NCBI GenBank assembly: GCA_016193315.1
Contig: JACPSJ010000001.1
Coordinates: 21,935-85,934 of the forward strand
Direction: 5' to 3'
DNA: 64,000 nucleotides
Source: Candidatus Kerfeldbacteria bacterium
GTDB taxonomy: Bacteria > Patescibacteriota > Patescibacteriia > SBBC01 > CAIJZX01
Position numbers and translations under genes: made by a program. The notes under the pieces are model-generated. The model had not been told where the DNA came from. It did not search any database and worked only from the letters and a program-made list of their open reading frames with translations. Shown here in pieces: positions 19,287 to 46,548 of this stretch (position 1 is the first letter of the stretch; the number at the start of each line of letters is the position of its first letter).

Positions 19287-19664
19287 ATGCCGGCTAAAAC
19301 ACCGAAGAACATTCTGATTGTTGAAGACGAAAAACCAACGGCCCAAGCTCTCCAACTGAAGCTGCAACGAAGCGGCTTTGCGGCGGCCATCGTCACTAAC
19401 GGTACCGACGCACTCGAAGCCTTGCTGCAACGCCGGTACTCACTAATCATTCTTGACCTCATCGTCCCGCAGCTAGACGGTTTCAGCTTTCTGGCGGCGA
19501 TGAAAGATCGCGGCGACCCGACGCCGGTCATCGTAGTCAGCAACCTCAGTCAGCCGGAAGATATGGCTCGGGCCGCCGAACTCGGCGCCAAGCATTTCTT
19601 CGTCAAGTCAGAAACAACCCTGGCGGCGATCGTCAACGCCATCAAGAAAACCCTGACGCCATGA
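19287..19664 (+). CDS. single-domain response regulator (CheY-like receiver)
   Basis: Receiver-domain motifs: ILIVEDE acidic pocket, phospho-acceptor IILDL(D), T/S at VIVVS, K at FFVKS. Confidence 0.85.
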   Translation: MPAKTPKNILIVEDEKPTAQALQLKLQRSGFAAAIVTNGTDALEALLQRRYSLIILDLIVPQLDGFSFLAAMKDRGDPTPVIVVSNLSQPEDMARAAELGAKHFFVKSETTLAAIVNAIKKTLTP

Positions 19665-21307: not shown

Positions 21308-21313
21308 TCAACC

Positions 21314-22900: not shown

Positions 22901-22902
22901 GT

Positions 22903-23343
22903 ATGCTGAAAGCTATGCGGTCAGGAATTACTCTGATCGAGGTCCTGTTAAGTCTCACCGTGATCGGGTTGCTCGTCGGCCTGGCCGCACCGGTCATGCA
23001 GTCCCTCCAAGCGCGTAACGACCTCGACGTGGCCGCCAACATCACCGCGCAAACGCTGCGGCGAGCGCAAGCCTTAGCTGTGGCCGTGGACGGGGACATG
23101 ATGTGGGGAGTTGTCCTCCAACCAGGGTCGGTAGTTTTGTTTCGCGGGTCGTCGTATGCGGCTCGCGAGCCGACTTTCGACGAGCAGTATGATCTCGCCC
23201 CGGCCATTACGCCGAGCGGGTTGACGGAGGTCGTATTTGCCAAGCTGACCGGTCGACCACAGGCGGTCGGCACGATCACCCTGGCTAATCCGGAGACGAG
23301 CCGGACGCTGACGGTCAACGAACTGGGGATGATTGAATACTAG
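22903..23343 (+). CDS. prepilin-type minor pilin / pseudopilin
   Basis: Class III signal MLKAMRSG|ITLIEVLLSLTVIGLL with Glu at +5. Confidence 0.7.
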   Translation: MLKAMRSGITLIEVLLSLTVIGLLVGLAAPVMQSLQARNDLDVAANITAQTLRRAQALAVAVDGDMMWGVVLQPGSVVLFRGSSYAAREPTFDEQYDLAPAITPSGLTEVVFAKLTGRPQAVGTITLANPETSRTLTVNELGMIEY

Positions 23344-23496
23344 CCTTGGCGACCCAGACGTGCTATGCCCCGGCACACGTTACCTGACCGACCCACCGCA
23401 GGTCAGATCAAACACTCCGGCTTTATCAGACACCTCGCTTTTAGTGTGATGCGACGCTCGCGAGTAAAGAGGAGAATCAACCAGCAGTCCAATACT

Positions 23497-25227
23497 ATGG
23501 TCAGGCACAGACGGCAAAATGGCTCTAGCGCGGGGTTTTCGGTGGTTGAAGTTTTGCTGGGCGTCAGCGTCTTTAGCTTATTAGTGACAGTTTTCGTTGG
23601 GGCTTACATCTACGGCCGCGAAAGCTCGCTTTTGGCCGGCCACCGTGGCCGGGCCGCGTTGGTGGCCGAGGAAGCAATGGAGGGCGTTCGCAGCATTCGT
23701 GACGGCAGTTTCGTTGACCTGACGGCCGGTGATCATGGCGTCCTCCCGATCGGCGGCCAGTGGCAGTTCTTCGGGACTAGTGTCCTGAATGATATCTTCA
23801 CCCAGCAGGTGACGATCAACGACGTCAGTCCGACGGCCAAATCAGCTGTCGCTCAAGCCACCTGGACGCAGAATCTGCAGCGGCCAGGATCCGTCAGTCT
23901 GAGCACTCGTTTGACCGACTGGCGGCGAACTGTCCGGCGAGGTGGGATGCTTATTTATGGCGATTACTCTGGGAATGACGACGTTATTCAGTACCGCCTG
24001 TTCAGCCGCGCCGGCACCTGGGGCGCCGTACAAACGGTTCCAGATTTCGGTGTACCGCTGCACCGACCGACACGCCGAGTCGAACTGTATTCCAACCCTT
24101 CGTCACGTGATGAGAAGGTGTTGGTAACGAAACATTTTGGCGGCGGGGCGGGAGATGACCTTTATCTGTATGCCCAAGTTTGGAACGGCACGACTTGGGG
24201 CAATGCCACTCAACTCGCCACTCGGAAAGACACGAACTTCCCGAGCAGTCGCGAGTTCGACGGCGACTATCTCGACGACGGTCGGTTTCTCTTGGTCTAC
24301 GGCGATGACACCAGAATCCCAAAATTCAGATTCTGGGACGGTACGGCGTGGTCATCAGCCGCCCCAACCGTTGATATCCGCGGCCGACCAGTCTGGATTG
24401 TCGTTCGGTCCCGCTCAGGGACGAACGAAGCCATGGTCGTCATTCTCGACGACCAGCGGGATACGAACACCATCTACTGGAACGGCAGCAGCTGGCTCGG
24501 CCCGGTTGAACACGGCAATAACGGGCCGGGAGCGGAATTCGACATGGTCAACTTCGTTTGGCGGCCGACCAACCCGACGCTCGGCGCGCTCGTCTACAAC
24601 GAAGGGAATGACAACCATCCAAACATCAAAGTGTGGGACAATGGAATTTGGGGCCCCAGCGTGGAAAACATCAACCTGGGGAAATCTATCCGCGCGATGC
24701 AGACCACCAGCGATCCGACGAGTGGCGATTGGCTACTCGGCGTCAAGGACAACGGCGATCGTATCAACAGCTTACTGAGTGACACCACGCCATCGTGGCA
24801 TACATTGACCAACGGACAACTGGCGGTCAAGACCGACAACGGTCCGCAGCGGAGTTTTTCGCTGGCCTTTGAAACCAACGCCGGCCAGCGGGCCATCGCC
24901 GTCTACGCCGATGGGCCGAACGCTGATGCCCTGGGGATTCCTAAGTACCGGACGTATGACCCGGCTACGAAAACCTGGGGTGCCGCCGGGAACTTGGCCG
25001 ATCTTGGTGGTCGGGCCGCAGCGCTCGAGAGCGTGGGGTTAATTCCCGACCCAGGAGGGGAGGATATCATGACGCTGATGGCCACCACCAACCAGCAGCT
25101 GTGGACGGTGCGGTGGAACGGTGCGACGCACGCTTTTTACTCGACCGGCGACGAGGCGCAGATTCGTCAAGCCACGAACGGATCTAGCGACGAAGATTTT
25201 TGGTTTGATTATGCCTGGGACAATTAA
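23497..25227 (+). CDS. large prepilin-like protein (577 aa) with a PilY1-like C-terminal repeat (putative beta-propeller) domain
   Basis: Leader MVRHRRQNGSSAG|FSVVEVLLGVSVF. The C-terminal half carries ~6 repeats of a W(N/D)G..W motif (VWNGTTWGNA, FWDGTAWSSA, YWNGSSWLGP, VWDNGIWGPS, KTWGAAGN, VRWNGATHAF). Confidence 0.65.
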   Translation: MVRHRRQNGSSAGFSVVEVLLGVSVFSLLVTVFVGAYIYGRESSLLAGHRGRAALVAEEAMEGVRSIRDGSFVDLTAGDHGVLPIGGQWQFFGTSVLNDIFTQQVTINDVSPTAKSAVAQATWTQNLQRPGSVSLSTRLTDWRRTVRRGGMLIYGDYSGNDDVIQYRLFSRAGTWGAVQTVPDFGVPLHRPTRRVELYSNPSSRDEKVLVTKHFGGGAGDDLYLYAQVWNGTTWGNATQLATRKDTNFPSSREFDGDYLDDGRFLLVYGDDTRIPKFRFWDGTAWSSAAPTVDIRGRPVWIVVRSRSGTNEAMVVILDDQRDTNTIYWNGSSWLGPVEHGNNGPGAEFDMVNFVWRPTNPTLGALVYNEGNDNHPNIKVWDNGIWGPSVENINLGKSIRAMQTTSDPTSGDWLLGVKDNGDRINSLLSDTTPSWHTLTNGQLAVKTDNGPQRSFSLAFETNAGQRAIAVYADGPNADALGIPKYRTYDPATKTWGAAGNLADLGGRAAALESVGLIPDPGGEDIMTLMATTNQQLWTVRWNGATHAFYSTGDEAQIRQATNGSSDEDFWFDYAWDN

Positions 25228-25273
25228 CTACACTCGGCCGCGACCCAGGACCCAGCCTGACAAGGTTTCAGGA

Positions 25274-25777
25274 TTGAAATCCCGGCCCAGCTTTACCCTG
25301 ATTGAACTCCTCCTCTACATCTCGCTGACCGCCATCATTACCTTCTCGGTCAGCTCCTTTCTGGTCGTGACTATCGATGCGCGGGTAAAAAACCAAACGG
25401 TAGCCGAGGTCGAGCAACAGGGTCAGACGGCGATGGTCATGATGACGCAGGCGATCAGGAACGCTCAAGGCATCAACAGCCCCGCCCTGGGAGAGGTCAC
25501 TAACACATTGTCGCTCGACGTGATCGAGGTGAGCAAAGACCCGACGACATTCACTTTGGCTGCCGGACAGCTGTGGGTGCAGGAAGGTGTAGCCCCGGCA
25601 GTGGCCCTGACGAATACCCGCATCCGGGTCATGGACATGTCGTTCATAGACTTATCACGCTCGAGCCAATCGCGCTCCGTCCGTATCAACCTCGTTCTCA
25701 ACTACTTCAATACTAGCGGCCGCAACATCCACACCTACACCAAGGTCTTTCAAGCCGCGGCTAACCCACGACCATGA
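25274..25777 (+). CDS. prepilin-like minor pilin, probably TTG-initiated
   Basis: TTG at 25274 gives MKSRPS|FTLIELLLYISL, a short leader with Glu+5. The in-frame ATG at 25211 would overlap the upstream gene by 17 nt. Confidence 0.5.
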   Translation: MKSRPSFTLIELLLYISLTAIITFSVSSFLVVTIDARVKNQTVAEVEQQGQTAMVMMTQAIRNAQGINSPALGEVTNTLSLDVIEVSKDPTTFTLAAGQLWVQEGVAPAVALTNTRIRVMDMSFIDLSRSSQSRSVRINLVLNYFNTSGRNIHTYTKVFQAAANPRP

Positions 25778-26172
25778 ACCAACGACGAAAGGGCATGATT
25801 ACGCTGATCAGCATCCTCGTCCTGGCCGCGGTCGGCGGCGCGGTGGCGGTGTCACTACTGCTGCTCGGGGTGGATGCCACCAGGACGAGTTCCAGCCGCG
25901 AGTTCTCGGCCGCGGCCCGGGCCCTGGCCAACGCCTGTGTCGAGACAGCCCTCGAGGAAATTCGTTCTTATACTCCCTTCACCACCGCCGGCACAAACCT
26001 GAACATTGGTTCTGGCACCTGCACCTACGTCGTGGCAAACACTGGCGGCTTCCGTCGCACCATCCAGGCGAGCGGGAGCATGGGGTCAGTCAGCCGCAAG
26101 GTCTTGGTCACCGTTGACCGAATCAACCCTACTATTCGGGTCACGTCTTGGCAGGAAGTGGGGGATTTCTAG
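25774..26172 (+). CDS. prepilin-like minor pilin (PilX/ComGG-like)
   Basis: MNQRRKG|MITLISILVLAAVGGAVAV; 4-bp overlap with the upstream pilin. Confidence 0.6.
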   Translation: MNQRRKGMITLISILVLAAVGGAVAVSLLLLGVDATRTSSSREFSAAARALANACVETALEEIRSYTPFTTAGTNLNIGSGTCTYVVANTGGFRRTIQASGSMGSVSRKVLVTVDRINPTIRVTSWQEVGDF

Positions 26173-26220
26173 GTCGGCGCCATACCGCTGGCCCGCCCAA
26201 TCAGGCTGTGTACAGCTCTT

Positions 26221-26253
26221 TGCTTCACAGACGAGCGCGGGTGTGCTATAATA
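26221..26253 (+). promoter_or_regulatory. extended -10 promoter upstream of the major pilin gene
   Basis: gtgTGcTATAAT at 26245..26253 (TGnTATAAT consensus); TTGCTT 21 nt upstream. Confidence 0.45.
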
Positions 26254-26308
26254 GGTGTGGTCGAGCCAGTACCTAACATCCAGATCTAGATAATCTCTCC
26301 AAACGAAA

Positions 26309-26818
26309 ATGAAACTAACCATGCCGACGCTTTCGTTACAAACCCGCCGCCATCTCCCCCGCGGGCGGGCAGGACGGGCCGGTTTTACGCTGCTCGAAAT
26401 TCTACTCGTCGTGGCGGCCATCGGTATTTTAGCGGGGATTGTCATCATAGCCATTAATCCTACCAAACAGCTCGGTGACACTCGGAACGCCCAGCGCAAA
26501 ACGGACGTCAATACGATCCTCAATGCGGTGTACCAGTACGCGGTTGACAGCGGTTCAATCCCATCGACGATCACGGACACCGCTACCGAGATTTGCGCCA
26601 CCGGCGTGGCCGCCGCTGATTGTACCACCGCCGGGCTGATTGATCTCTCAGTTCTGACCACGGCCGAGAAATACTTAGTCTCCATGCCCCAGGATCCGCA
26701 GTGTAGCACCGTTTGCGCGACCGACGGCGTCGACTACCAAATCCTCAAGACGGCCAATAACCGCGTGACGGTCAGCGCGCCGGGAGCTGAAGGAACGACC
26801 GTTTCGGTCACCCGATAA
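26309..26818 (+). CDS. pilA: type IVa major pilin candidate
   Basis: ...RAGRAG|FTLLEILLVVAAIGILAGIVIIAINP classical pilin N-terminus; Cys pairs in the C-terminal part; own promoter. Confidence 0.75.
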   Translation: MKLTMPTLSLQTRRHLPRGRAGRAGFTLLEILLVVAAIGILAGIVIIAINPTKQLGDTRNAQRKTDVNTILNAVYQYAVDSGSIPSTITDTATEICATGVAAADCTTAGLIDLSVLTTAEKYLVSMPQDPQCSTVCATDGVDYQILKTANNRVTVSAPGAEGTTVSVTR

Positions 26819-32649: not shown

Positions 32650-33140
32650 TCAGACCGCGGGCACGTCAGTGCCCCGGTTTTTTGTCGATTCGCTGGGCGC
32701 CGATTGCCAGGCGCGTCTCGCCGCGAGCGCGGTTCCAAACAAAAAAATTGAAATCCCAGCTGAGATGAGGCAGTAGAAACAATAAGCTTTCAACACGAAT
32801 GCTTGCAGCCAGAGTAGATACAGGCTAAAGAGGAACCCCACCACGGTCAGAAGCATCAGGATCCGTAGCCACCGGACCTGTCCAGTATCCAGAACCATGA
32901 TGCTGAGAACGACAATGACCAGGTAGTAGCCCGCGCCCAGGAGCGAAATCGGAACCGGGCCGATGGTAGCGTAGACGCTATTGGTCACTACGTCGCAGCC
33001 GGTGGTGACCAGGCAGGGGATTGGCCCGTGCGTTAACTTCTCGACCGTCAGGAATGTGGCGTCGGCAAAGCCAAGCACGCCCAGGACGAGAAAGACAATG
33101 ACCCAGGTTTTTGGTTGACGCGCCGCCAGACCGTTAGTCA
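32650..33140 (-). CDS. vitamin K epoxide reductase (VKOR) family protein
   Basis: 4 TM helices, loop Cys pair CLVTTGC and active-site CFYC in TM4. Proposed GTG start at 33140 overlaps the TAA of the upstream DsbA-like ORF (gtgactaa). Confidence 0.7.
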
Positions 33141-34272
33141 CATCCCGTTCCCAAGCCCCCGACGCAGTTCTCGGTCGGCGGTTGACCGCGCTCCGGGCAC
33201 TTCTCCGAGTAGATACAGGCTTTGTCCGTGACGTTGGCCACCTGATCTTGGGTTTCGGCCGGCGTGTAGGTGCCAAAGAGAACAAGAATCCTGTCCAGGT
33301 CGTTCGGCTGATAGGCGCCAAACTGTGTATTCGCTTGGCCATTGACGAACAGTTGAAGTTTCTGGTCGCCGCTGGTGCATTTGTCCTGGCCGGTGTCGAG
33401 TTTCAAACATTGCGCGGTCAAGCCCATGCCGAAGGAGGTCAAGAGATCACTGAGGCTGACGTCAGCGGCGTGGATGTGCACCACCTCGCCATTGCCGTCG
33501 TGGAAATGGATGCCGGGGTGGAGGTGGTTGGCTTCGGTGGCTTGGAATTTATCCTGGGAGAAGTCGATGGCTTGACCATCGACGACCAGGCGAAAATCAA
33601 AGTGGTTGTGCACGGTGGCCGGGCTGGTGTTTGTCAACGGCCGCTTAGCAATTGCTTCTTCAATCAGCTTCTGGAAGTCTTCCAGACTGCGCGGGTTCTG
33701 AAGACGTTCGCCGTTGAGAAAGAAGGTCGGTGTACCGTTGACTTGGGCGCGGCGGCCGCTGGCGGCGTCGGTATCGACGACACTCGATACGGCGGTAGAA
33801 TCCAGATCAAGAGATCGTGCATCGGCCAGAACGCATCCTGTTTGGCCGCGGCCTCGGAGGCTTCGGCCGAGGCTTCAGCGTTTAGATGCGACTGGGTCAG
33901 CGGGAAGTGGCGGTAGGCGAGGCCAAGCCGGTCACCGAACTTGTCCGTCAATGATTGCAGGACCGATTCGTAGGCGGCGCAGGCCGGACACTGGAAGTCG
34001 CCGTATTCGATCAGAATCGCTGGTGCCTGGGCTGAACCACGAACATGATCAGTGGCTTTGATGGCATCAACCGATGAGTTAGTGTTGTTATCCGGTTGGC
34101 CCTTGGCCAAGTAGACGAGGCCCCAGACGATGAGGCCTAACCCAAGAATCGTCCCCCCCCAAGTGAGGATGCGCCGCGGGGCCACCGGTTTCTTGACCGA
34201 CTCATTGGTCGGCAACAGTCCTTGCCGGCGTAACTCGCGACGCTGCTTCTTGGTCAAATGTTGGTCGTCCAT
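33134..34272 (-). pseudogene. DsbA-family thiol:disulfide oxidoreductase with an N-terminal TM anchor and a C-terminal Cys-rich extension, interrupted by a frameshift near 33760..33810
   Basis: Upstream ORF: TM anchor, then FQCPAC...FWPMHDLL (DsbA-like). A different frame continues with ...RRAQVNGTPTFFLNGERLQNPRSLEDFQKLIEEAI... (classic DsbA C-terminal motif) into ORF 33134..33637. Confidence 0.5.
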
Positions 34273-34291: not shown

Positions 34292-34501
34292 TCAAGTGTC
34301 GTCTGGCGCGCTATATTTCTCTGGATCGTCGAGGAATTGTCGAAAGCAATCGGCGGAGTGAAAATAATACGTGGTTTGGTGGTAGTCATATGTCTGAGCC
34401 GCTTGTCGAGGGTCGAGGGCGACATCACAAACGGGATCAACAACCGAGCCGATGGATGCGTCGTCGACTTCTGTCGATGCTGCATATGGACCAATGACCA
34501 C
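34292..34501 (-). CDS. YHS-domain small metal-binding protein
   Basis: DPVCDVALDPRQAAQTYDYHQTTYYFHSADCFRQFLDDPEKY fits the YHS motif (DPVCxM...YYFCS..C...F..nPekY). Confidence 0.6.
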   Translation of the reverse strand: MVIGPYAASTEVDDASIGSVVDPVCDVALDPRQAAQTYDYHQTTYYFHSADCFRQFLDDPEKYSAPDDT

Positions 34502-34519
34502 GGCGATAGGCAGGTGCTG

Positions 34520-35458
34520 TTATTGGCACACCGGCGGCGATTCGTAACTGACCGATTCATAGGTTAGGCCCAGACTAGCGATTAAGCCAGCTTTTTCTAA
34601 CTCGCCATCGCACTTATGATCGCCCGAAGGTCGTTTCCCAACGTTCCCGACGCAGTAGTACTGCATTTCGGTGCCGGTCCAGGGCCAATACTGGTCTCCG
34701 CACATGACCAGTGGACCGTCATCCGGCCAAAATCCTCCTCCGGCACAGTTACAGCAAGTCCCATAATAGGTGCTATTTGACGAGAAGGAATGACTAGTTT
34801 CAGTGGTGTTGCCATTTGGGGAGCGGTAGCGGCGCAATTGACCCTTAATTGCTTTGCTGGAGTTCAAGAACGCTCGGCTGCCGCTTTTTTCCAGTTCAAT
34901 CTGAATGACATAGTGTTGGAAGTTGTCGAGTTCGCCGCTCACCAGATAGTGCCAGTGCTGCCGGTGCCAAGTGCTGCTCGGCCCACCCTCATATCTGGGC
35001 GTACCCGGAATTATTTTGTTAACAATCGGGTCATCGGGGATGGAACCGATAAGGTAGGGCTGTAAGATATCTTCCAACTGTTTCCATCCGCTCGGTAAGT
35101 CGCCCCCGGAGGCGGAAGAGATACACTCGGTATGAGGGTAAGTACCGTGGGCCGTATAGTACCGTTCGAGAGCCAGCTGAATCTCGGCCGCATCGGCTGC
35201 CCGCTGGGCATTCCTCGCTCGCACCCGCGCGCCGGAGGCGTAGTTGATGCCGATCAGGCTAATAATGCCGAGCACGCCGATGGTGATGACTATTTCGATC
35301 AAGGTGAAACCGAAAATTCGCCGTACTTTCTTGGTCGGAAGGTGTGGGGTTTGTAGAAGGTTGGACGGAGCCCGGCGGCTCGACCGGGCGACTGGGGGTG
35401 AAGCGGTTATTGCCGGCCGGGTGGCGGTGGGCTTAGGGTCTCGTGGTGTCACTAGCAA
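34520..35458 (-). CDS. prepilin-type N-terminal domain protein with a Cys-rich C-terminal domain
   Basis: ...KKVRRIFG|[16 protein letters not shown] prepilin motif. The C-terminus has a CCNC...C...C...C cluster. Start unclear: the conceptual leader is ~49 aa and the ORF overlaps the copA 3' end. Confidence 0.6.
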
Positions 35459-37868
35459 GGCGGAAACGTTTTAGCCGCAGTGAGTTTAGCACGACGAAGA
35501 GCGACGAGCCAGCCATGGCGCCGGAAGCGATGATCGGGCTGAGCAACAGATGAAACGCCGGGTACAGGACACCAGCGGCGATCGGCAGGCCGAGAATATT
35601 GTAGATGAATGCCCAGAAGAGATTCTGCTTGATATTCCGGAGCGTAGCTTTTGATAGGCGGATGGCGGTTACCACCTGACGGAGGTCATTGCCGACGATG
35701 GTGATATCCGACGCTTCCCGCGCCACGTCCGTGCCCGAGCCCATGGCCATGCCGACATCGGCTTGGGCCAGAGCTGGTGCATCATTGACGCCATCGCCGA
35801 CCATGGCCACGCGGTGTCCAGCAGCCTGGAGTTCTTTGACCTTGGCCGCTTTGTCGCCCGGCAGAATATTGGCCAGCACCCGATCGCGGTCAATGCCGAC
35901 TAGCTGAGCGATGCGGGCGGCCGTCACTTCGTGGTCGCCGGTGATCATGAAGACGGTTAGCCCGAGGCGACGTAATTGCGCGATGGCCGCCTGGCTGGTT
36001 GGCTTGATTTTGTCGCCGACGCCAATCAGCCCAGCCGTGTCTGCCTCAACCGCCACCATGATCGGCGTCAACCCACGCCTGGTGTAGGCTTGATGGTCGA
36101 ATCGGTCACCCGTAGTGAAAACGCCGAGGTTGTGCACCAGCCGTGGGGAACCGACAATCACTCGCTGTCCATTGATCACACCACTGACTCCTTGTCCGGG
36201 ATGGTTGTTGAAACCCACGACCGGCTGGAGAGTTAAACCCCGCTTCTTGGCTTCGGCCACGATCGCTTTGGCCATCGGGTGCTCGCTTTTTGCTTCGACT
36301 GAGGCGGCGTACTGCAGCGTGTAGTCTCGCCCGACGACATCGATCACGGCCATCTGCCCGCTGGTGACGGTGCCGGTCTTGTCCAGCACGATCGTGTCGA
36401 CCCGCTGAAGCAATTCCAAAGCCTCGGCATCGCGCACCAGCACGCCTTGTTCAGCGCCGCGACCAACACCAATCATAACCGCCGTCGGCGTGGCTAAGCC
36501 AAGGGCGCAGGGGCAGGCAATGATCAGCACCGTGACCGCGGCGATCAAGCTGAAGTTCAGGGCCAGGACGCCAGCCGGCGGGAAAATCATCCAGACGGTA
36601 AACGCCACCAGCGCGATGGCGATGACAATCGGCACAAAAACTCCAGAAATCTTGTCGGCCAAACGCTGAATTGGAGCTTGCGAGCTCTGGGCCTCCTCCA
36701 CCAGCTGGATGATCTGTGACAACATCGTTTGCTTCCCGACCTTCGTGGCGCGGAAGGTGAAGCTGCCGTGAGTATTGATGGTACTGCCGTAGACGATACT
36801 GCCCGGACTTTTCTCCCGCGGCAGGCTTTCGCCAGTGACCATCGCCTCGTCAACCGCCGACTGCCCGTCGACCACCTCGCCATCAACGGCTATTTTTTCA
36901 CCCGGCCGGACGACGATCACATCGCCCACCACGACTTGGTCAAGCGGTACTTCTCGTTCTTGCCCATGGCGGATAACGCGCGCCACTTTGGCGGCCAATT
37001 GGGCCAGTTTGCGGATCGCTTCATTGGCGCCGGCCTTAGCCCTGGCTTCAAGATACTTACCGAGCAGAATGAGCGTGATGATGACGACGGTCACGTCAAA
37101 GTAGGTGGCTGGTTGCTGCCCACTGCCGGCAAAAGCCGCTGGCCAGACCACTGCGACCAGGCTGAAAAAGTATGCGGCGCTGGTGCCGAGAGCGATGAGC
37201 GTATCCATGTTCGCTTGCCAGAAGCGCAGCGATTTCCAGGTGCTGACGAAAAACTGCGATCCAGCCCAGAAGAGGACCGGCGTGGCCAGAAGAAGTTGAA
37301 TCGGTCGAATGGTTGATTCGGGAGCGATGGTTGCTCCGAACAACATCAATGCGTCCGGCAGCATGACCATGATCGAAGTAACCACCCCGAACCTCAACTT
37401 GCGTTTTAAGATAAGGAGTTCTTCCTGTCGCAACATCCGGGCGTGATCGTGGACGCTGTGTTCCATTGAGCCGGTTTCACCGGTGTGTTCGTGGGCCGAT
37501 GGTTCGTGTTCGTCATGGTGGTCGTGGGCGGCCGCGGCTCCTCCCCTGCCCGACCGCTCGGCCATGAGCTCGCGGCCGAATGGGGGGAGGTGTCCCGAGC
37601 TTCGTCGAGGGGCGGAGGGGTGGGAGCCGCGGCCGCCCTCAATAACGGCCGTGTATCCCAGCTTGTCGATTTGCTCGGCGATCCGTGTTGGTGAGCATTG
37701 CTGTGAATCGAAAGTCACCCGACCCTGCTCGGTGGCGTAATTGACGTTAACCTCAGCCACGCCTGGTAGCTTTTTGACCACCCGCTCAATGTTCTTGGCG
37801 CACGAAGCACAGTGCATGCCGACGATGGGAAAACGAAGGCTGGTGGTCATACCCTGGTCACTGAACAA
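35433..37868 (-). CDS. copA: copper-translocating P1B-type ATPase
   Basis: N-terminal HMA ([12 protein letters not shown]), His-rich stretch, CPC in the TM region, [15 protein letters not shown]. Confidence 0.9.
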
Positions 37869-38859
37869 TGTTCACCGGCTGACCGTGCTCAAAAGCCTCG
37901 ATGTTCTTTATCGTTGTGTCTAGAATGCGCTGGAGCGCCTCGCCGGAGTTAAAGGCGTTGTGTGGTGTGATGATCACTTTCGGGTGGTTGAGGAGCAGGT
38001 GATCGGCCAAGACCGTCTTGAGGTCACACTTCGTCTGGAAAACCTTTGACAGCAACTCCCGCTCTTCCTTGATGGTGCATTCTTCTTCCAAAACATCTAG
38101 GCCGACGCCAGCCAGGTGTCCTTCGCCCAACACCTTCAAGAGTGCCTGCGTATCAATCAGTTGACCACGGGCGGTGTTGATCAGCCAGGCAGTCGGCTTC
38201 ATCAACCGCAATCGTGCTTCGTTGAGGAGATGCTGATTGTCCGGCGTGGCTGGCGCGTGGAGGGAAACGACGTCGCTCCGTCGCAACAGATCGTCCAGCG
38301 GGACGTACTGGAATTCAAGCCGTCGGGCCTGCTCTTGATTCGGGCGTGGGTCATAAGCGATGACCGACATTTCCAGCCCCCGCCCCATTTTGATCAGCCG
38401 TTGACCGATCCGACCGGCACCGACCACGCCCATGGTTTTACCGGCCAAGTCCACGCCACGCAGGTCGTCGAGACGAAAATCGCCATGCTGAGTTCGGACC
38501 ACGCTGGGGATGATTTTTCTCGACAGGGCGAGGAGCAGGGCCAAAGCATGTTCAGCCACAGTGTTCTCGCCGTACGACGGCACGTTGCAAACGGTGATGC
38601 CGTGGCTGTGGCAGGCGGCCAAGTCAATGTGGTCGTACCCGGTCGACATGGTGGCGATCAGCCTCAGTGCCGGGTAGCGGTCGAGGACGTCTTTGGTGAT
38701 CGGGCTGTAGATAAAGATGGCCAACACGTCGGGTTGCCCGATATCACCGGCTTCATCAAGATGCTTGGTGGAAAACTGCCCGTTGGGGAAAACCCGCCGT
38801 AGATAATCGATTTCCCATTGTTCCAGCTCGACCGCCGCCAGGCGCATGGTTTGATTCAT
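37858..38859 (-). CDS. D-isomer-specific 2-hydroxyacid dehydrogenase family protein
   Basis: NAD-binding [12 protein letters not shown], catalytic R/E/H region (NTARGQLID...PHNAF). Confidence 0.85.
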
Positions 38860-39131
38860 AGTCGGTCAAAAACCTGCATTAGTTCAGCGATCGTTTTTTC
38901 GGCCGCCCCGCCTCTGGTGTCCCGCATGTCCCGGGCGACGCAGGTACGGAGGTGATGCTGCAGCACTTGCTCGTCAAACTTTCGCAGCGCCTGCTGGATG
39001 GCCCGCGATTGGTGGATGATGTCGATGCAGTAGGCGCCTTCATCGAGCATGCGGCGAACTTTCCGCAGGTGTCCCTCGACGATGGCCAGACGGTGAGCCG
39101 TGGTTTTTCGCTTATCTTGGAGGGTTTTCAT
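38856..39131 (-). CDS. csoR: CsoR/RcnR-family metal-sensing transcriptional repressor
   Basis: HRLAIVEGHLRKVRRMLDEGAYCIDIIHQSRAIQQAL...HL (W-X-Y-Z Cys/His positions of the CsoR family); 4-bp overlap with the dehydrogenase gene. Confidence 0.75.
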   Translation of the reverse strand: MKTLQDKRKTTAHRLAIVEGHLRKVRRMLDEGAYCIDIIHQSRAIQQALRKFDEQVLQHHLRTCVARDMRDTRGGAAEKTIAELMQVFDRL

Positions 39132-39157
39132 GGTTATCCAACCTTCGTCCACAAGTC

Positions 39158-39216
39158 TGGTATGGGGGATTGAGGAATCATGGTGTGGATAGTCCTAATC
39201 CCCTATGGGGGGATTA
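39158..39216. promoter_or_regulatory. candidate CsoR operator(s) in the csoR promoter region
   Basis: GC-tract pseudo-palindrome taatcccctatggggggatta (39196..39216) plus a second tggtatgggggattg half-copy (39158..39172). Resembles known CsoR boxes (TACCC-n-GGGTA type). Confidence 0.4.
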
Positions 39217-39332
39217 TAACAGTCCACAGGCCGGGGCACAATCCCCTCTATCTACGGACCTACTTCGCGAGGTTTTTGCTTGTCGCTTGACATTGAAATA
39301 GCGGCTGGTGTAGGGTGTGTTTACAACCGAAT

Positions 39333-39510
39333 ACGCATCAAGAGAGGGTGATAGCGCACGCTCAACGTGCCGCGGGTGTACTGGACCCGCCAAGCGCCCC
39401 CACAACCTACCTCAAGCTTGTCGAGAGGCAAGGTGCGAACCCAGCCCTGTCCGGCGGAGGGACGTAGTACGTCCCGGAGCCGGATCCGGCTCGGCCGGAA
39501 AAGGGACAGA
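39333..39510 (+). promoter_or_regulatory. SAM-I (S-box) riboswitch-like element, variant with insertions (upstream copy)
   Basis: P1 acgcatc...gatgc; core ATCAAGAGAGGGTGA...ACTGGaCCCG...AACC...GGTGCGAAccCAGCC...GGACAGATG; resembles the RF00162 consensus. Confidence 0.4.
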
Positions 39511-39575
39511 TGCAAAGAATCTCTTTGCAGTCCGTCCTGAACAGGGGCGGTTGTTTCATGCACATTGACAATTGA

Positions 39576-39683
39576 ATAACATCAAGAGCGAGTGCTAGGG
39601 TCCTGGCCCAGTGATCACTCCCCCAACCAATTCCGCTATCCAGCGGAAGAACGGTGGGACTTCCAGCCTGAAATGGACAGATG
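39576..39683 (+). promoter_or_regulatory. SAM-I (S-box) riboswitch (downstream copy)
   Basis: aacATCAAGAGcGAGtGCTAGGGtCCTGGCCCAgTGAtCACtCcCCCAACC..TTCCGC..GCGGAA..GGTGGGActTCCAGCC..GGacAGATGtt; P1 aacatc/gatgtt, P3 ttccgc/gcggaa; 68 nt upstream of the ATG at 39752. Confidence 0.6.
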
Positions 39684-39751
39684 TTGTATTCGAACTGCAG
39701 CCGCCTTTTCGGGCGGTTGTTTTGTCCTGCTGGCACCAAAAGGAGCAAACT

Positions 39752-40579
39752 ATGCCATCGAAAGTAGAGAAGCAAGACCGCCACGCGAAAGAAGTATCGG
39801 CCATCGTGGCTGGGGCGCGTGAAGAGCTGGAACGCGCCAGCCAAACGCTCCAGCGCATGGTCGAGTTCGTTCACCAGCCGTTGTTCCTCCAATTCCGCAA
39901 CCGGGCCGCCCAGATGATCGCCACCGCTCACCCTAAACTGGTGACGGCCATGCAGATCATCGAAGCGGCAGTCGAACAGGTGCAGGTGACCGGCAAGCTG
40001 GCGCCGCACAATCCGTGGCCCGGGCCGTGGCCGGAAACGTGGGACTGCCTACGCTTGCCGACCGGCGCGGTCGACTACGCGAACATCGTGTGCGCCAACT
40101 ACCTGACCCGGCTTGAGGGCGACCTCGAGTATCACGAGGAAGGCTGGATGTACGCACTGCTGCCCTGCCTGCAATTCGCTCACGATCGGTTGGTTGCCGT
40201 TCGCGGAGAATTCCTCAGCCAGTTCGGCGAACCGTTTGATCGGGCGGCCGTGGATAGGCAGTACGACCGAGTCCCCCGGGTTCGCTTCGAGCACGTAGCC
40301 GACGTGCTGCGGGAGTGCGATGAGCGATCCCAGGGGCAGGCGCTCAGGGACTGGCTCAAGCGCCATGCCAACACGGATGTCACGCTAGCCGGCGGCCACG
40401 GCGTCCGGTTCATGCTTTGGGACCAGGGCGAAGAAATTATTCCCATGTATTACCTGGACCACGAGAAGCGGCCTGGTCGGAGCGATTGGAAGCATTGGCG
40501 GGACGCGATCAAACTGGTCATTGCCCGCCGGTCTCCGGCGCGACCGGACAATCCACAGTCGTGGCAGGAATTCTTCTGA
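39752..40579 (+). CDS. hypothetical protein (276 aa) downstream of the SAM riboswitches
   Basis: AAAGGAG 6 nt upstream of the ATG at 39752; no recognisable motif (Trp/His-rich). Confidence 0.5.
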   Translation: MPSKVEKQDRHAKEVSAIVAGAREELERASQTLQRMVEFVHQPLFLQFRNRAAQMIATAHPKLVTAMQIIEAAVEQVQVTGKLAPHNPWPGPWPETWDCLRLPTGAVDYANIVCANYLTRLEGDLEYHEEGWMYALLPCLQFAHDRLVAVRGEFLSQFGEPFDRAAVDRQYDRVPRVRFEHVADVLRECDERSQGQALRDWLKRHANTDVTLAGGHGVRFMLWDQGEEIIPMYYLDHEKRPGRSDWKHWRDAIKLVIARRSPARPDNPQSWQEFF

Positions 40580-40963
40580 AAGGAGGTGAACCAATGACCA
40601 CTCGTGCGCAGCGGCAAAAACTCCGCAATCGACTTGAGGATGTCCTGGAAATTCGCCAGGAGGTCCGGCGCTGTCTCCGTTGCCGGGGGAGGGTTATCTC
40701 CCTTATCAGGAGGCGAGAGCGCTGCTTGGCGACGAGCTAGGCAAAATCGGTTGGGGCTGGCTCGATCTCCTCCACCTCCGTCGTGAACTTCAGACTGAGC
40801 GACGGTTGTGGATGGAGTGCCAGGGGACCAGCGACCCTCGCTGGATTGCCTGGCAGAACGGGGAATCCTTCTCTGCCCCGATGGGCGTGGAGGTGTAGTT
40901 CCTGTTCAACCCGCCGCCCCGAGCGAAGTCGAGGGGCGGCGGCGCGCCAATCAAGGAGCCATC

Positions 40964-41428
40964 ATGAACCAGAGCACAGACGAATTCAAAGTCTTCCGTT
41001 TGGAGAAGTTCATTCCCACCCATTGCCCGAAGTGCGCCCATCCGTTCCGATCGAACGCGGATCGCGACTTCCTGTTCGACCACCGCCTCCTGCATCCGCA
41101 GGAAACGCCGGCCGAGTGGCTAGCCGTGTTTCCGGAAGCGGCTGCGACCGAGGGGCTGCACGCCGAGCCGATCTGGTGCGGCCGATGCCAGAACATCACC
41201 TTGCGCGTCGTGACCGCCGTTCGACATGTGACCACCGAGGCGGAGGCGGTCGAGCTCGAATCCCTCGGTTACGCCAACCGGCGGGTGCTCGAGTGCTCCG
41301 GGGAAAGTTTCTCGCAGCTACCGGAGTACACGTTAGCCGTTCTGGTAGATCCAGAAACAGAGCGCGGCCCGATTACGTTCTTTCCGAAGGCCATGCATCG
41401 ACCTGGCCCACCCCGCCCCTCACAGTGA
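40964..41428 (+). CDS. hypothetical zinc-ribbon protein (154 aa)
   Basis: AAGGAG plus ATG at 40964; CPKC...CGRC; followed by a hairpin and T-run. Confidence 0.45.
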   Translation: MNQSTDEFKVFRLEKFIPTHCPKCAHPFRSNADRDFLFDHRLLHPQETPAEWLAVFPEAAATEGLHAEPIWCGRCQNITLRVVTAVRHVTTEAEAVELESLGYANRRVLECSGESFSQLPEYTLAVLVDPETERGPITFFPKAMHRPGPPRPSQ

Positions 41429-41550
41429 GGCGGGTTTTGTTTTGGCCGACGCTCAGCTCCGGAGATCAGCGTTGACACCTCTACACGCTGTCTGTTACAG
41501 TAGCTTCCCCTTGCAATATCTCGGATGGGTTGACCGTCCGTGAGGAGGAT

Positions 41551-41769
41551 ACGGTGGAAAAGCGAACCTTGATCGTCGTCAAGCCGCGGCCATGTCCACA
41601 CTGCAAGGCGCCGGCCGGGTATGGCGACACCGACTACCGGTGTCCAAGTTGCGGCCAAGGATTCTGCAGCCTGTGTTACAAGACGGATCCTGACGGGCCG
41701 GGAGATTACGTCTTCTGTCCCAGCTGCAAAGCCACGCTGTACTTTCCGATAACGCTCCTGACCGCTTAG
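41551..41769 (+). CDS. small double zinc-ribbon protein (~72 aa)
   Basis: Four CxxC motifs (CPHC, CPSC, CSLC, CPSC); GAGGAGG before the GTG at 41551 (the ORF could also start at 41530). Confidence 0.45.
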   Translation, partial: TVEKRTLIVVKPRPCPHCKAPAGYGDTDYRCPSCGQGFCSLCYKTDPDGPGDYVFCPSCKATLYFPITLLTA

Positions 41770-41770
41770 C

Positions 41771-41800
41771 CGCTCCTCGTCGAGCGGTTTTTTGTATGGC
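41771..41800 (+). terminator. intrinsic terminator
   Basis: ccgctcctcgtcgagcgg followed by ttttttgt. Confidence 0.5.
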
Positions 41801-41820: not shown

Positions 41821-42027
41821 CTAAACTAATTCCACCGGGTAACCCTCCGAGTCGAGCGCGGTCTTGAGAGCCGCCGATTGGACGCTGTCGTCATGCTCAA
41901 CCGTCAACGTTTTCTGCCGGACATTGACTTCAGCCTTTTTCACTCCCGGCGTATCTTCGCAGATGCCTTCCATCACCAAAGCGCAGGAGGCGCAGTCGTA
42001 CTTGAGAACCTTGAATGTCGTCGTCAT
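41821..42027 (-). CDS. copZ: heavy-metal-associated (HMA) copper chaperone, CopZ-like
   Basis: MTTTFKVLKYDCASCALVMEGICEDTPGVKKAEVNV, a ferredoxin-like HMA fold with a CxxC metal site; the start overlaps the upstream stop (TAATG). Confidence 0.7.
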   Translation of the reverse strand: MTTTFKVLKYDCASCALVMEGICEDTPGVKKAEVNVRQKTLTVEHDDSVQSAALKTALDSEGYPVELV

Positions 42028-43025
42028 TAGACCGCCTGGATCGTCCCGCGGAACATGCCCATGCCGCAACTAAACGTATACTCGCCCGGCGCGGGGAAGA
42101 TCGCACTTACCAGCGTGGTACCGGTTCGCGGCAGGGATCGTTCAATCTGGAGCTTCGGGATGCGAAAGAGCTGGGTGCAGCCGGCGTTGTTGTTCGTTAC
42201 CAAACTCAACTCGACAGGTTGGCCGGCTGGGACAGTAACGATGTTCGGTTCGTAGCCATTGTTAAGAACATTGATAGTTAGACTAGTTTCCCCGGCAGTC
42301 GAAGTCTGAGTGGTGCCGTAGGCCAAGGCTCGGAAGGCGGCGATTTCGTTTTGAATGGAGTAAGGCGAATCGACCATCACCAGCACGCCGTTGAGCGTGT
42401 AGAGTCCTAACGCCACCACCACCGCGGCGGCGGCATAGGCCAACCGCCGTTGCAACAATGCTGTGCCCTTAGCCAGAATCCCGACGGTAAAGAACAACGG
42501 CGCCGTCCCCAGGACAAAAGCGAGCATCACGCTCGCGCCTTGCCAAGGGCTGGCCGTGGCGATGGCCGCCACCTCCATCGCCTGCGTCGTCCCGCAGGGG
42601 ATGAGCACCGTCAGCAGACCGAGGATGGCGGGCGCGATCAGGAGTTGACTCTTGGCGCTCCGCCGAATCAGACGGCGGGCCGAGGCCGGCGGATGAATGG
42701 TTAACCATGGTAACCAGTGGGGGAAGATCAATCGAACGCCGGCTACCAACATAAACAAACCGGCTAACGTCTGCAGCCAAATACGAACGGTGGTGGTCAA
42801 TTGGATGGTATCGCCGAGCCAGCCGAGGCCGAATCCAAGGACCGTATGGATAATCAGCTTGGCCACCAGGAAAGCGGTTACCGGCAAGATCAACAGTTGC
42901 CATCGCTGCAGGTGGGGTTCCTCTCGGCGGCGGGCCAAAAGTCCGAGTAGCAGCCCGCCCTGGACGGCCAGGCAGGTCAGGCCCCCGGTACTGAGGCCAG
43001 TCAAGAAAGCAGTCAGCGGCGTCAT
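42027..43025 (-). CDS. membrane protein: CcdA/DsbD-like six-TM core fused to a C-terminal cupredoxin-like domain
   Basis: TM1 FLTGLSTGGLTCLAV and TM4 LIPCGTTQ resemble the two Cys-containing helices of CcdA/DsbD. The C-terminal ~90 aa ends in GEYTFSCGMGMFRGTIQAV, a Cupredoxin_1-like motif. Confidence 0.6.
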   Translation of the reverse strand: MTPLTAFLTGLSTGGLTCLAVQGGLLLGLLARRREEPHLQRWQLLILPVTAFLVAKLIIHTVLGFGLGWLGDTIQLTTTVRIWLQTLAGLFMLVAGVRLIFPHWLPWLTIHPPASARRLIRRSAKSQLLIAPAILGLLTVLIPCGTTQAMEVAAIATASPWQGASVMLAFVLGTAPLFFTVGILAKGTALLQRRLAYAAAAVVVALGLYTLNGVLVMVDSPYSIQNEIAAFRALAYGTTQTSTAGETSLTINVLNNGYEPNIVTVPAGQPVELSLVTNNNAGCTQLFRIPKLQIERSLPRTGTTLVSAIFPAPGEYTFSCGMGMFRGTIQAV

Positions 43026-46315: not shown

Positions 46316-46387
46316 TCGGTCCCTAGCTCAATGGTAGAGCACTCGTCTTATACACGAGCGGTTGCAGGTTCGAGTCCTGCGGGACCG
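46316..46387 (+). tRNA. tRNA with anticodon TAT (would read AUA; Ile-like), no encoded CCA
   Basis: Cloverleaf: acceptor CGGTCCC/GGGACCG, D-arm GCTC..GAGC, anticodon stem CTCGT/ACGAG, loop CTTATAC, T-arm GCAGG TTCGAGT CCTGC. Confidence 0.6.
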
Positions 46388-46548
46388 AGTTTGGGCGGGA
46401 CAGGTACACGAGCGGTCGCGGGACTGCCCCGAAAACGAGGAACTACGTGACAAGTTGTACGGGACTCGAATCCTGGCGGGCCGACCATGGAAAGGGTGTA
46501 TCGCCTCAGCGCTTAAGGCACCCGGTGTGAAAGATTCAACCGAAAACT

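Follow-up and report, generated by a model that had tools for sequence, protein, structure and literature searches.

A predicted CsoR-autoregulated copper operon with a coupled D-2-hydroxyacid dehydrogenase, a DsbA-VKOR tail, and an inserted pilin-like gene in a Candidatus Kerfeldbacteria genome

Here, we describe a copper-related gene cluster on a 64,000-nt stretch of DNA (the window, to which all coordinates refer) from the genome of an uncultivated Candidatus Kerfeldbacteria bacterium, a member of the Candidate Phyla Radiation (CPR/Patescibacteria). Reading along the minus strand from 39241 to 32650, a promoter with its operator is followed by csoR, a gene for an NAD-dependent D-2-hydroxyacid dehydrogenase (HADH), copA, a type IV pilin-like open reading frame (ORF), a YHS-domain gene, a DsbA fusion gene, and vkor. 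This is the set and order of genes that a preliminary description had read from the DNA, and Pfam searches bear it out. The window is 100% identical to a Candidatus Kerfeldbacteria metagenome-assembled genome, of which the pilin and the dehydrogenase are exact matches. In the order of reading, the features are the following.

39213-39241, minus strand: operon promoter, with a -35-like TTGTGC (39241-39236), a 17-nt spacer, and an extended -10 element TGnTATAAT (39221-39213)
39197-39215, no strand assigned: CsoR-type operator AATCCCCCCATAGGGGATT (AATCCCC-CCATA-GGGGATT), an inverted repeat of a C-tract and a G-tract that overlaps the -10 box
38856-39131, minus strand: csoR, 91 aa, PF02583 (E 2.6e-22; 79.4 bits against a cut-off of 22.8)
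37858-38859, minus strand: HADH, predicted NAD-dependent D-2-hydroxyacid dehydrogenase, PF02826 (1.5e-56) and PF00389 (2.5e-26)
35433-37850, minus strand: copA, predicted P1B-1 Cu(I)-exporting ATPase, 805 aa, with HMA, E1-E2 ATPase, and HAD domains
35312-35432, minus strand: C-rich spacer of 121 nt between the copA stop and G/FTLIE (the slash marks the cleavage site), 45% C and 20% G on the transcribed strand
34520-35458, minus strand: type IV pilin-like ORF, with its mature part at 34520-35311, eight cysteines, and a G/FTLIE motif
34292-34501, minus strand: YHS-domain protein, 69 aa, GTG start, PF04945 (1.1e-10)
33134-34272, minus strand: DsbA fusion (CPAC active site plus C-terminal His/Cys-rich domain), split into two ORFs here
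33664-34272, minus strand: DsbA-like ORF, Thioredoxin_4 (1.4e-09)
32650-33141, minus strand: VKOR, 163 aa, GTG start, PF07884 (8e-23), with a CFYC active site and loop cysteines C-x6-C

All genes of the cluster lie on one strand, with intergenic gaps of -26 to +19 nt. At the csoR/HADH junction, stop and start share an ATGA; HADH and copA are 7 nt apart (copA ATG at 37850) or overlap by 11 nt (copA TTG at 37868); copA and the pilin-like ORF overlap by 20 nt (pilin GTG at 35452) or 26 nt (pilin TTG at 35458); gaps of 18 nt (pilin/YHS) and 19 nt (YHS/dsbA) follow; and the DsbA fusion overlaps VKOR by 8 nt. The overlapping stop and start codons of the preliminary description, including the run of the pilin ORF into the copA 3' end, are therefore features of the DNA. 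A consensus promoter and terminator scan gave no convincing internal promoter or terminator on the minus strand of the operon, and its counts stood at background level; the scan also missed the actual csoR promoter, which it left out on a -35 hexamer that fits at only 3 of 6 positions. Rfam, run over the whole window, returned tRNAs and nothing else. Because the genes share a strand, are separated by small or negative gaps, and have no convincing internal terminator or promoter, they would be transcribed as a single unit, a predicted CsoR-autoregulated operon of ∼6.6 kb that extends from the promoter and operator through vkor.

The argument for copper control starts from the regulator and its binding site. 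Among proteins of solved structure, the best relatives of the csoR product are the CsoRs 4m1p, 2hh7, 4adz, and 3aai, and its residues C35, H60, and C64, which align with the Cu(I) ligands C36, H61, and C65 of Mycobacterium tuberculosis CsoR, are retained in all seven CsoR orthologues considered here. With the family domain, the C-H-C ligand set, and an operator in its own promoter all present, the protein is, judged from these features, a member of the Cu(I)-sensing branch of the CsoR/RcnR family. The G-tract operator that had been reported with csoR is the palindrome at 39197-39215, which abuts TGnTATAAT. It is present once per locus, at a matching position ahead of csoR, both in the window and in six related loci (L081, L084, L085, L172, L173, and L174), and in all seven of these csoR loci the operator and the abutting TGnTATAAT are conserved together. 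The C6 and G4 tracts are essentially invariant among them and the flanking sequence has diverged; in the promoter, the TG and TATAAT are invariant and the TTG at the -35 position is kept in the six related loci. Ahead of HADH in a csoR-less lineage (L082), the operator was not found. The evidence for an autoregulated, Cu(I)-responsive operon is thus as good as sequence allows, and a copper response is what it predicts. A second C-tract, ATCCCCC, is conserved in all seven loci within the csoR leader (window 39150-39185), ∼40 nt 3' of the -10 box, and might serve as a CsoR half-site or in some other regulatory capacity.

To place the dehydrogenase in an evolutionary setting, we compared eight HADH contexts, the window included, which were chosen solely on HADH similarity (63-74% identity, CPR) and on the length of sequence available. 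The other seven are laid out as follows.

L081: DsbD_2/cupredoxin, small ORF with a copZ match, csoR, HADH, copA, DsbA, VKOR, VKOR
L085: DsbD_2/cupredoxin, HMA, csoR, HADH, copA, PNPOx, DHO_dh, DsbA, VKOR (VKOR by tblastn only)
L172: DsbD_2/cupredoxin, HMA, csoR, HADH, copA, YHS, DsbA fusion, VKOR
L174: csoR, HADH, copA, DsbA, unknown gene, GpsA-like, VKOR
L084: csoR, HADH, YHS, DsbA, VKOR (copA absent)
L173: HMA, csoR, HADH, DsbA, GpsA-like, VKOR (copA absent)
L082/L083/L093: HADH, DsbA, Ferric_reduct-like, VKOR, with their own promoter TTGTATAAT; csoR and operator absent

In seven of the eight contexts, csoR stands directly upstream of HADH, with the same ATGA overlap and the operator, and DsbA-VKOR lies downstream of HADH in every one; copA is present in five and YHS in three. 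HADH is therefore tied more tightly to DsbA-VKOR than to copA. The related loci differ from the window by ∼15-40% in their proteins and by ∼31-35% in their DNA, and so they do not represent one near-identical strain sampled repeatedly. That the ATGA overlap is kept in seven of seven csoR loci across this divergence, and that HADH holds its position while copA, YHS, and other genes come and go, argues for selection on co-expression rather than drift; together, the conservation of the csoR-HADH pair, the operator, and DsbA-VKOR across diverged CPR relatives indicates that HADH is a genuine, selected member of the operon. A search of GTDB representative genomes with copA returned only relatives at 42-53% identity (cyanobacteria, Firmicutes, and others), which served solely as a negative control and supplied 80 loci from other phyla: csoR is often adjacent in these, and HADH lies between csoR and copA in none, in line with the earlier remark that a csoR-copA operon with a dehydrogenase in it departs from the textbook. 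HADH homologues of 55% identity or less mostly occur in other contexts, the exceptions being L107, where the gene adjoins DsbA, and L112, where it overlaps VKOR. A scan of JGI metagenomes with HADH returned mostly out-clade homologues (46-54% identity) that lack the context; L092 and L093 were the only in-clade matches. Neither a CsoR-dehydrogenase operon nor a Kerfeldbacteria copper system is described in the titles and abstracts covered by our literature search.

The closest solved relatives of the dehydrogenase are the fermentative D-lactate dehydrogenases (D-LDHs) 5z20 (1.5e-64) and 3kb6, and in the alignment to these the GxGxxG motif and the Arg/Glu/His catalytic residues are intact and the acidic LDV(L/Y/F)E(E/D)E stretch and TPH are retained. 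No NCBIfam equivalog reaches its cut-off, the best being generic 2-hydroxyacid dehydrogenase, phosphoglycerate dehydrogenase, glyoxylate reductase, and VanH models. By its closest structures, the enzyme would be of the D-lactate type, with pyruvate as a putative substrate. Seven positions distinguish the clade from other homologues, none of them catalytic and none a Cys or His, and they give no sign of an altered function in this clade. An explanation that we consider unlikely is that HADH is a passenger: a common fermentative D-LDH that became fixed behind csoR in one CPR clade and has no role in copper stress. Compact CPR genomes often combine unrelated genes in one operon, and HADH, which shows no clade-specific catalytic change, comes from a very large CPR/DPANN family of D-LDH-like proteins (7786 matches at E<=1e-30), whose members at or below 55% identity sit mostly in unrelated contexts. 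A passenger, however, fits poorly with an ATGA overlap that outlasts 15-40% protein divergence in every csoR locus and with a position that survives the turnover of its neighbors.

Downstream of HADH, CopA scores 614.7 bits against the TIGR01511 cut-off of 397 and carries CASC at residue 14, CPC at 446, DKTGT at 490, YN(x4)P at 750, and MxxSS at 779; with all expected motifs found, its sequence identifies it as a P1B-1 Cu(I)-exporting ATPase. Between its HMA and membrane domains lies a His-rich stretch (residues ∼97-140; window 37430-37560) that includes HSVHDH. Orthologues of the small YHS protein occupy the equivalent place in L084 and L172. The CPAC thioredoxin fold beside a VKOR with CFYC and loop cysteines has the makings of a DsbA/MdbA-VKOR oxidative folding pair. 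The preliminary description had a DsbA-like gene followed by VKOR, and here the order held and the direct adjacency did not: a further 167-aa ORF (33134-33637) lies between them and turns out to be the C-terminal domain of a DsbA fusion. The DsbA frame switches after FWPMHDLL, and the other frame carries the C-terminal half of DsbA (VNGTPTFFLNG...) into the 167-aa ORF. In the deposited metagenome-assembled genome, a 100-nt deletion at 33808 breaks the fusion gene in two; three Logan assemblies (L175-L177), otherwise 100% identical to the window, have 100 extra bases at that point and an intact 412-aa gene, and L172 has an intact orthologue of 415 aa. An artefact of assembly or a minor variant is the likeliest source of the 100-nt loss, as the comparison of assemblies suggests. 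A decaying dsbA pseudogene was considered and rejected, since three independent assemblies have the intact gene. Histidines (in HNH, HLH, HFHD, and HIH) and cysteines abound in the C-terminal fusion domain, which matches no Pfam family. Most of its homologues stand alone, at a length of ∼190-200 aa, and two are fused to DsbA; one homologue comes from a Diapherotrites (DPANN) archaeon, and metagenomic contigs supplied the others. The domain may be an extracytoplasmic metal-binding module.

The tight association of HADH with DsbA-VKOR brings in the strongest rival to a copper role for the dehydrogenase, one that we rate low yet find the most interesting. According to this alternative, the conserved core of the locus is a redox/disulfide module in which HADH is coupled to DsbA-VKOR, for instance through the balance of NAD(H) or quinones in cells that have no respiratory chain, and csoR and copA are add-ons by which some lineages brought the module under copper control. 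The three genes keep company in all eight contexts, including L082/L083/L093, which have a promoter of their own and neither csoR nor operator, and copA is missing from L084 and L173; more distant HADH homologues adjoin DsbA (L107) or overlap VKOR (L112); and relatives add further NAD(P)- or flavin-dependent redox enzymes (GpsA-like, DHO_dh with PNPOx, Ferric_reduct-like) between or next to DsbA and VKOR. In Actinomyces oris, re-oxidation of MdbA/VKOR needs NADH dehydrogenase and menaquinone (PMC5478893). HADH, however, is a soluble, NAD-dependent enzyme that has no membrane or quinone-binding feature, and passing electrons from DsbA/quinol to pyruvate/NAD+ would be uphill by textbook midpoint potentials. 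It is because we can propose no thermodynamically comfortable electron path for such an enzyme that we judge this reading doubtful, somewhat less probable than the passenger. The absence of a clade-specific change in the HADH active site and of the association from most out-clade homologues also speak against it. A variant that retains copper control has HADH and DsbA-VKOR as an invariant unit gated by CsoR, in which the cytoplasmic NAD(H)/2-oxoacid redox state is linked to VKOR turnover, helping quinone-poor CPR cells with no respiratory chain to maintain or balance disulfide formation outside the cytoplasm, and copper, a thiol poison and oxidant, signals a raised demand; we hold it to be slightly less probable still.

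The pilin-like ORF has a different history. Its cleavage context is RRIFG/, followed by FTLIE with Glu5 and a hydrophobic helix, and its mature part consists of 264 open codons; the Pfam N_methyl model gives 18.3 bits, under its cut-off of 21.2. A word-indexed protein search found the protein itself as the sole full-length match, the others being generic pilin N-termini. An exhaustive HMMER search with the C-terminal 163 residues recovered a small family with 30-42% identity across the whole length, whose common features are the G/FTLIE helix, an HWHxxVSGxxDNxQHY motif, and three conserved cysteines. The window pilin retains 17 of the 19 invariant and 20 of the 24 near-invariant residues of this family, with conservative substitutions at the others. 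An AlphaFold model has a pilin fold, with a helix at 53-104 and then a beta-sheet (mean pLDDT 66.5); in Foldseek, its best PDB matches are type IV pilins, weakly (E 0.05), the Cys-rich C-terminal part is modelled at low confidence and has no PDB match, and the family profile matches the N-terminal helices of solved pilins at 3e-18 to 1e-9. The possibility raised in the preliminary description, that the pilin ORF is a non-coding overlap with copA, thus falls for the mature part, which is homologous to pilins, and stands for the leader of ∼48 residues, which looks non-coding.

Since L172 has the window operon gene for gene except for the pilin, with the YHS start two bases after the copA stop, the pilin gene entered the copA-YHS junction recently, and in this genome only. 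Of the two genes that had seemed out of place in the operon, the comparison of csoR-copA neighborhoods in relatives accordingly makes HADH a conserved member in a CPR clade and the pilin a one-genome insertion. We found no repeats, paralogues of the pilin region, or insertion scars in the window. Copper genes adjoin none of the three family members with readable contigs, and a copper-linked pilin family was rejected for lack of copper genes in these contexts. The family motif HWHxxVSGxxDNxQHY (H168, H170, D178, and H182 within residues 168-183; window ∼34910-34957) falls on two adjacent predicted strands and may bind metal. The stretch from residue ∼251 to ∼304 of the 312-aa ORF, with its conserved CG...C(V/I)GN cysteines, matches seven repeats in a metagenomic protein of 3052 aa (P0132), and these C-terminal ∼55 residues may be a reusable surface module. 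The window also holds a type IV filament cluster (19661-26709) with four pilin-like ORFs and with PilB and PilC genes, which lie ∼12 kb from the pilin and are as follows; no prepilin peptidase was seen in the 64-kb window.

19661-21307: PilB-like T2SSE ATPase
21314-22900: PilC-like T2SSF platform protein with a C-terminal SH3 domain

How the pilin would be translated is the least conventional aspect of the locus. The nearest canonical starts are a GTG at codon -48 (35452) and a TTG at -50 (35458), both within the copA 3' end; between -48 and the G/F cleavage site there is no ATG, GTG, or TTG, and only an ATT (-3) and an ATA (-34) lie closer, so the long conceptual leader that had been noted is real. 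A 48-residue class III leader is far beyond the usual range. Leaders in the pilin family are 8-20 residues long, with a forced leader of 19 residues in the closest homologue (P0130); at least one pilin-like ORF of the filament cluster has a forced leader of 21 or more residues (cleavage site 26381), so that leaders can be long here, though 48 residues goes well past these. The window pilin has no short basic leader, of roughly 5-30 residues, running from a start codon. Gene callers disagree on it: NCBI starts at a TTG inside FTLIE, giving 260 aa with the signal removed (P0001), and the Logan call starts at the GTG, giving 310 aa (P0144). Three independent assemblies, built from three sequencing runs, agree exactly over the pilin region, and a sequencing error therefore does not account for the anomaly. 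Over the full 147-nt leader (35312-35458, including 26 nt of copA overlap), GC by codon position is 0.63/0.63/0.59, against ∼0.6/0.45/0.7 in the neighboring genes. In its excess of C over G, the spacer within it surpasses all other 100-nt stretches of the window (of 6390 sliding stretches, the 2 at this level both fall in the spacer), and folding of the copA-pilin junction RNA gave no structure (z -0.48); these properties fit a Rho-utilisation (rut)-like site or a disordered peptide rich in Pro, Thr, and Ala.

Four routes can be ranked on this evidence. If the pilin is translated, initiation is most likely at GTG 35452 or TTG 35458, coupled to termination of copA, with a leader of ∼48 residues, and this coupled start comes first. 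Second, and in our view possible though well short of probable, the pilin is not expressed: the inserted gene lost its start or never had one and is becoming a pseudogene, and the spacer is untranslated, possibly loading Rho and lowering downstream expression. The distance of the nearest canonical start, a leader that does not share the codon-position GC pattern of local genes, the unstructured, strongly C-over-G-skewed spacer (hallmarks of rut sites), and the uniqueness of the gene to this genome at this position are all consistent with decay. Weighing the other way are the open frame through all mature codons, the retention of nearly all conserved family residues, and the identity of the sequence in three samples; the 55 open codons upstream add little, such a run being expected by chance, on our estimate, about once in five at this GC. 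A near-cognate start at the ATT at -3, ranked third, is unlikely and would give a three-residue leader, MFG, with no basic residue. The fourth route, in which some ribosomes reaching the copA stop shift by +1 (so that AGA CCC UAA G yields CCU AAG) and prepilin peptidase then releases the pilin at G/FTLIE, strikes us as very improbable. The pilin frame is indeed the copA frame +1, and the copA stop context CCC_UAA_G, which the pilin frame reads as CCU AAG, recalls CCC_UGA, a site prone to +1 shifting in Escherichia coli; the CopA C-terminus and pilin leaders are both cytoplasmic, making the topology compatible; and a 48-residue linker rich in Pro, Thr, Ala, and Arg fits a disordered tether. Yet the insertion is unique and hence offers no comparative support, no stimulatory upstream Shine-Dalgarno-like sequence or RNA structure was found at the junction, and the in-frame GTG and TTG starts are a simpler route. 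We know of no precedent for a pilin made by a +1 shift.

Taken together, the explanation that we favor, and think probable, is that of a CsoR-autoregulated operon in which HADH is a selected member, the products have roles in copper stress, and the pilin is an insertion. By analogy with the family, when copper is absent a CsoR tetramer would sit on the C-tract/G-tract palindrome over the -10 box and block transcription, and Cu(I) binding at C35, H60, and C64 would release CsoR so that the whole unit is transcribed. CopA would then export Cu(I) from the cytoplasm, and DsbA-VKOR, with YHS and the His/Cys-rich domain, might keep exported Cys proteins oxidised while external copper attacks their thiols; the Cys-rich mature pilin would be a plausible DsbA client. 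HADH could provide an Fe-S-independent route of NADH re-oxidation (pyruvate to D-lactate) that lets fermentation continue when Cu(I) poisons thiol and Fe-S enzymes. Several of these elements have counterparts elsewhere: copper-induced Dsb/Scs systems are known in proteobacteria (PMC10907172, PMC5524982), and a role in folding pilins has been proposed for the MdbA-like/VKOR pairs of CPR (PMC6744442). A link between copper and metabolism is plausible because Cu(I) inhibits glyceraldehyde-3-phosphate dehydrogenase and glycolysis and remodels carbon flux in Staphylococcus aureus (PMC6350627), and because the lactate enzyme gene lctO belongs to the Lactococcus lactis copper regulon (PMC5651008, citing Barre et al. 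2007). Five points weigh against the explanation we favor. The occurrence of HADH-DsbA-VKOR outside csoR and operator control (L082) and apart from copA (L084 and L173) means that the link is possibly not about copper; co-transcription and copper induction are both things that we infer from the sequence; the role given to HADH is purely conjectural; the DsbA gene is broken in this assembly; and the pilin, whose leader looks non-coding and is well outside the usual length range, may not be made.

Compared with described systems, the window operon resembles the CsoR operons of Gram-positive bacteria (B. subtilis csoR/copZA and M. tuberculosis csoR-Rv0968-ctpV) in its PF02583 repressor with a C-H-C Cu(I) site, its GC-tract pseudo-palindromic operator over the promoter, a repressor inside its own operon, and a P1B-1 ATPase with a CopZ-like chaperone nearby. 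It departs from them in the dehydrogenase translationally coupled to csoR, in the YHS, DsbA fusion, and VKOR genes after copA, and in that copA is dispensable in some of its relatives, whereas the dehydrogenase and DsbA-VKOR are not. The Salmonella ScsABCD, Proteus ScsC, and P. aeruginosa dsbDEG systems likewise link copper to thioredoxin-fold oxidoreductases with membrane partners and are copper-switched to protect exported cysteines (PMC10907172, PMC5524982, bioRxiv 10.1101/2020.08.17.255257); these, however, are under envelope two-component systems and use DsbD/ScsB-type reductant pathways, whereas the window genes are predicted to be under a cytoplasmic CsoR and comprise an oxidising DsbA-VKOR pair in a cell with no outer membrane. 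L. lactis lctO, in the CopR regulon (PMC5651008), is comparable as a lactate/pyruvate-interconverting enzyme under a copper sensor. Its regulator, however, is of the CopY/CopR type, the enzyme is a flavin, O2-dependent oxidase with a proposed role in O2 removal, and its gene forms a separate transcription unit, whereas HADH lies within the efflux operon.

The DsbA-like protein beside VKOR, with pilus proteins as proposed clients, recalls A. oris MdbA-VKOR and the CPR pairs, the adjacency of VKOR to MdbA-like proteins having been noted in 88 CPR genomes (PMC6744442, PMC5478893). The pili in those cases are sortase pili, whereas the candidate client here is a type IV pilin-like protein in the same operon, and no copper control, dehydrogenase, or YHS partner is described for MdbA-VKOR. 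The pilin, for its part, is like type IV pilins and the GspG pseudopilins of type II secretion systems in its G/FTLIE with Glu5, its long N-terminal helix and beta-sheet head, and an ARxAQRxxD...YYxxxGxYP segment; it is unlike them in lacking a start codon over the 47 codons before its cleavage site, in its family-specific HWHxxVSGxxDNxQHY head and Cys-rich C-terminal extension, and in its location within a copper operon.

Further copper genes lie upstream on the minus strand, as identified by Pfam.

42027-43025, minus strand: DsbD_2-cupredoxin fusion
41821-42027, minus strand: CopZ-like HMA protein

DsbD_2-cupredoxin and CopZ-like genes are conserved upstream neighbors of csoR in L081, L085, L172, L173, and L174; in the window, no CsoR operator was found ahead of them. 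Three plus-strand ORFs (39611-40579, 40808-41428, and 41530-41769) sit between copZ and the csoR promoter (39400-41800), and the last of these encodes a zinc-ribbon-like protein of 79 aa and has a promoter-like site and a terminator of its own. The distance from copZ to csoR in relatives is just 150-450 nt, and the plus-strand ORFs would therefore be a second lineage-specific insertion into the island. Elsewhere in the window, a tRNA-Ile gene with anticodon TAT, which is uncommon among bacteria, lies at 46316-46389.

We conclude that a CsoR/CopA-type system with a conserved, translationally coupled dehydrogenase and a DsbA-VKOR tail is present in a clade of CPR bacteria. What most merits further work is the conserved linkage of the dehydrogenase to DsbA-VKOR. 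The start-less pilin, a curiosity of one genome, lends itself to a clean test of long-range translational coupling, or of recoding, where two genes meet. Very little is known of how CPR bacteria (Patescibacteria), which are uncultivated, fermentative episymbionts, respond to stress; here, a recognisable Cu(I) sensor and operator in a conserved operon offer a concrete CPR regulon that can be tested by cloning. The operon would tie copper sensing to a central, fermentation-type enzyme and to a DsbA-VKOR pair thought to fold CPR surface proteins, such as pilins. If the link to the dehydrogenase is functional, it can be read in two ways: copper stress might divert metabolism into a bypass, much as model bacteria switch isoenzymes, or the link might be a clue to how VKOR-based disulfide formation is kept up without a respiratory chain.

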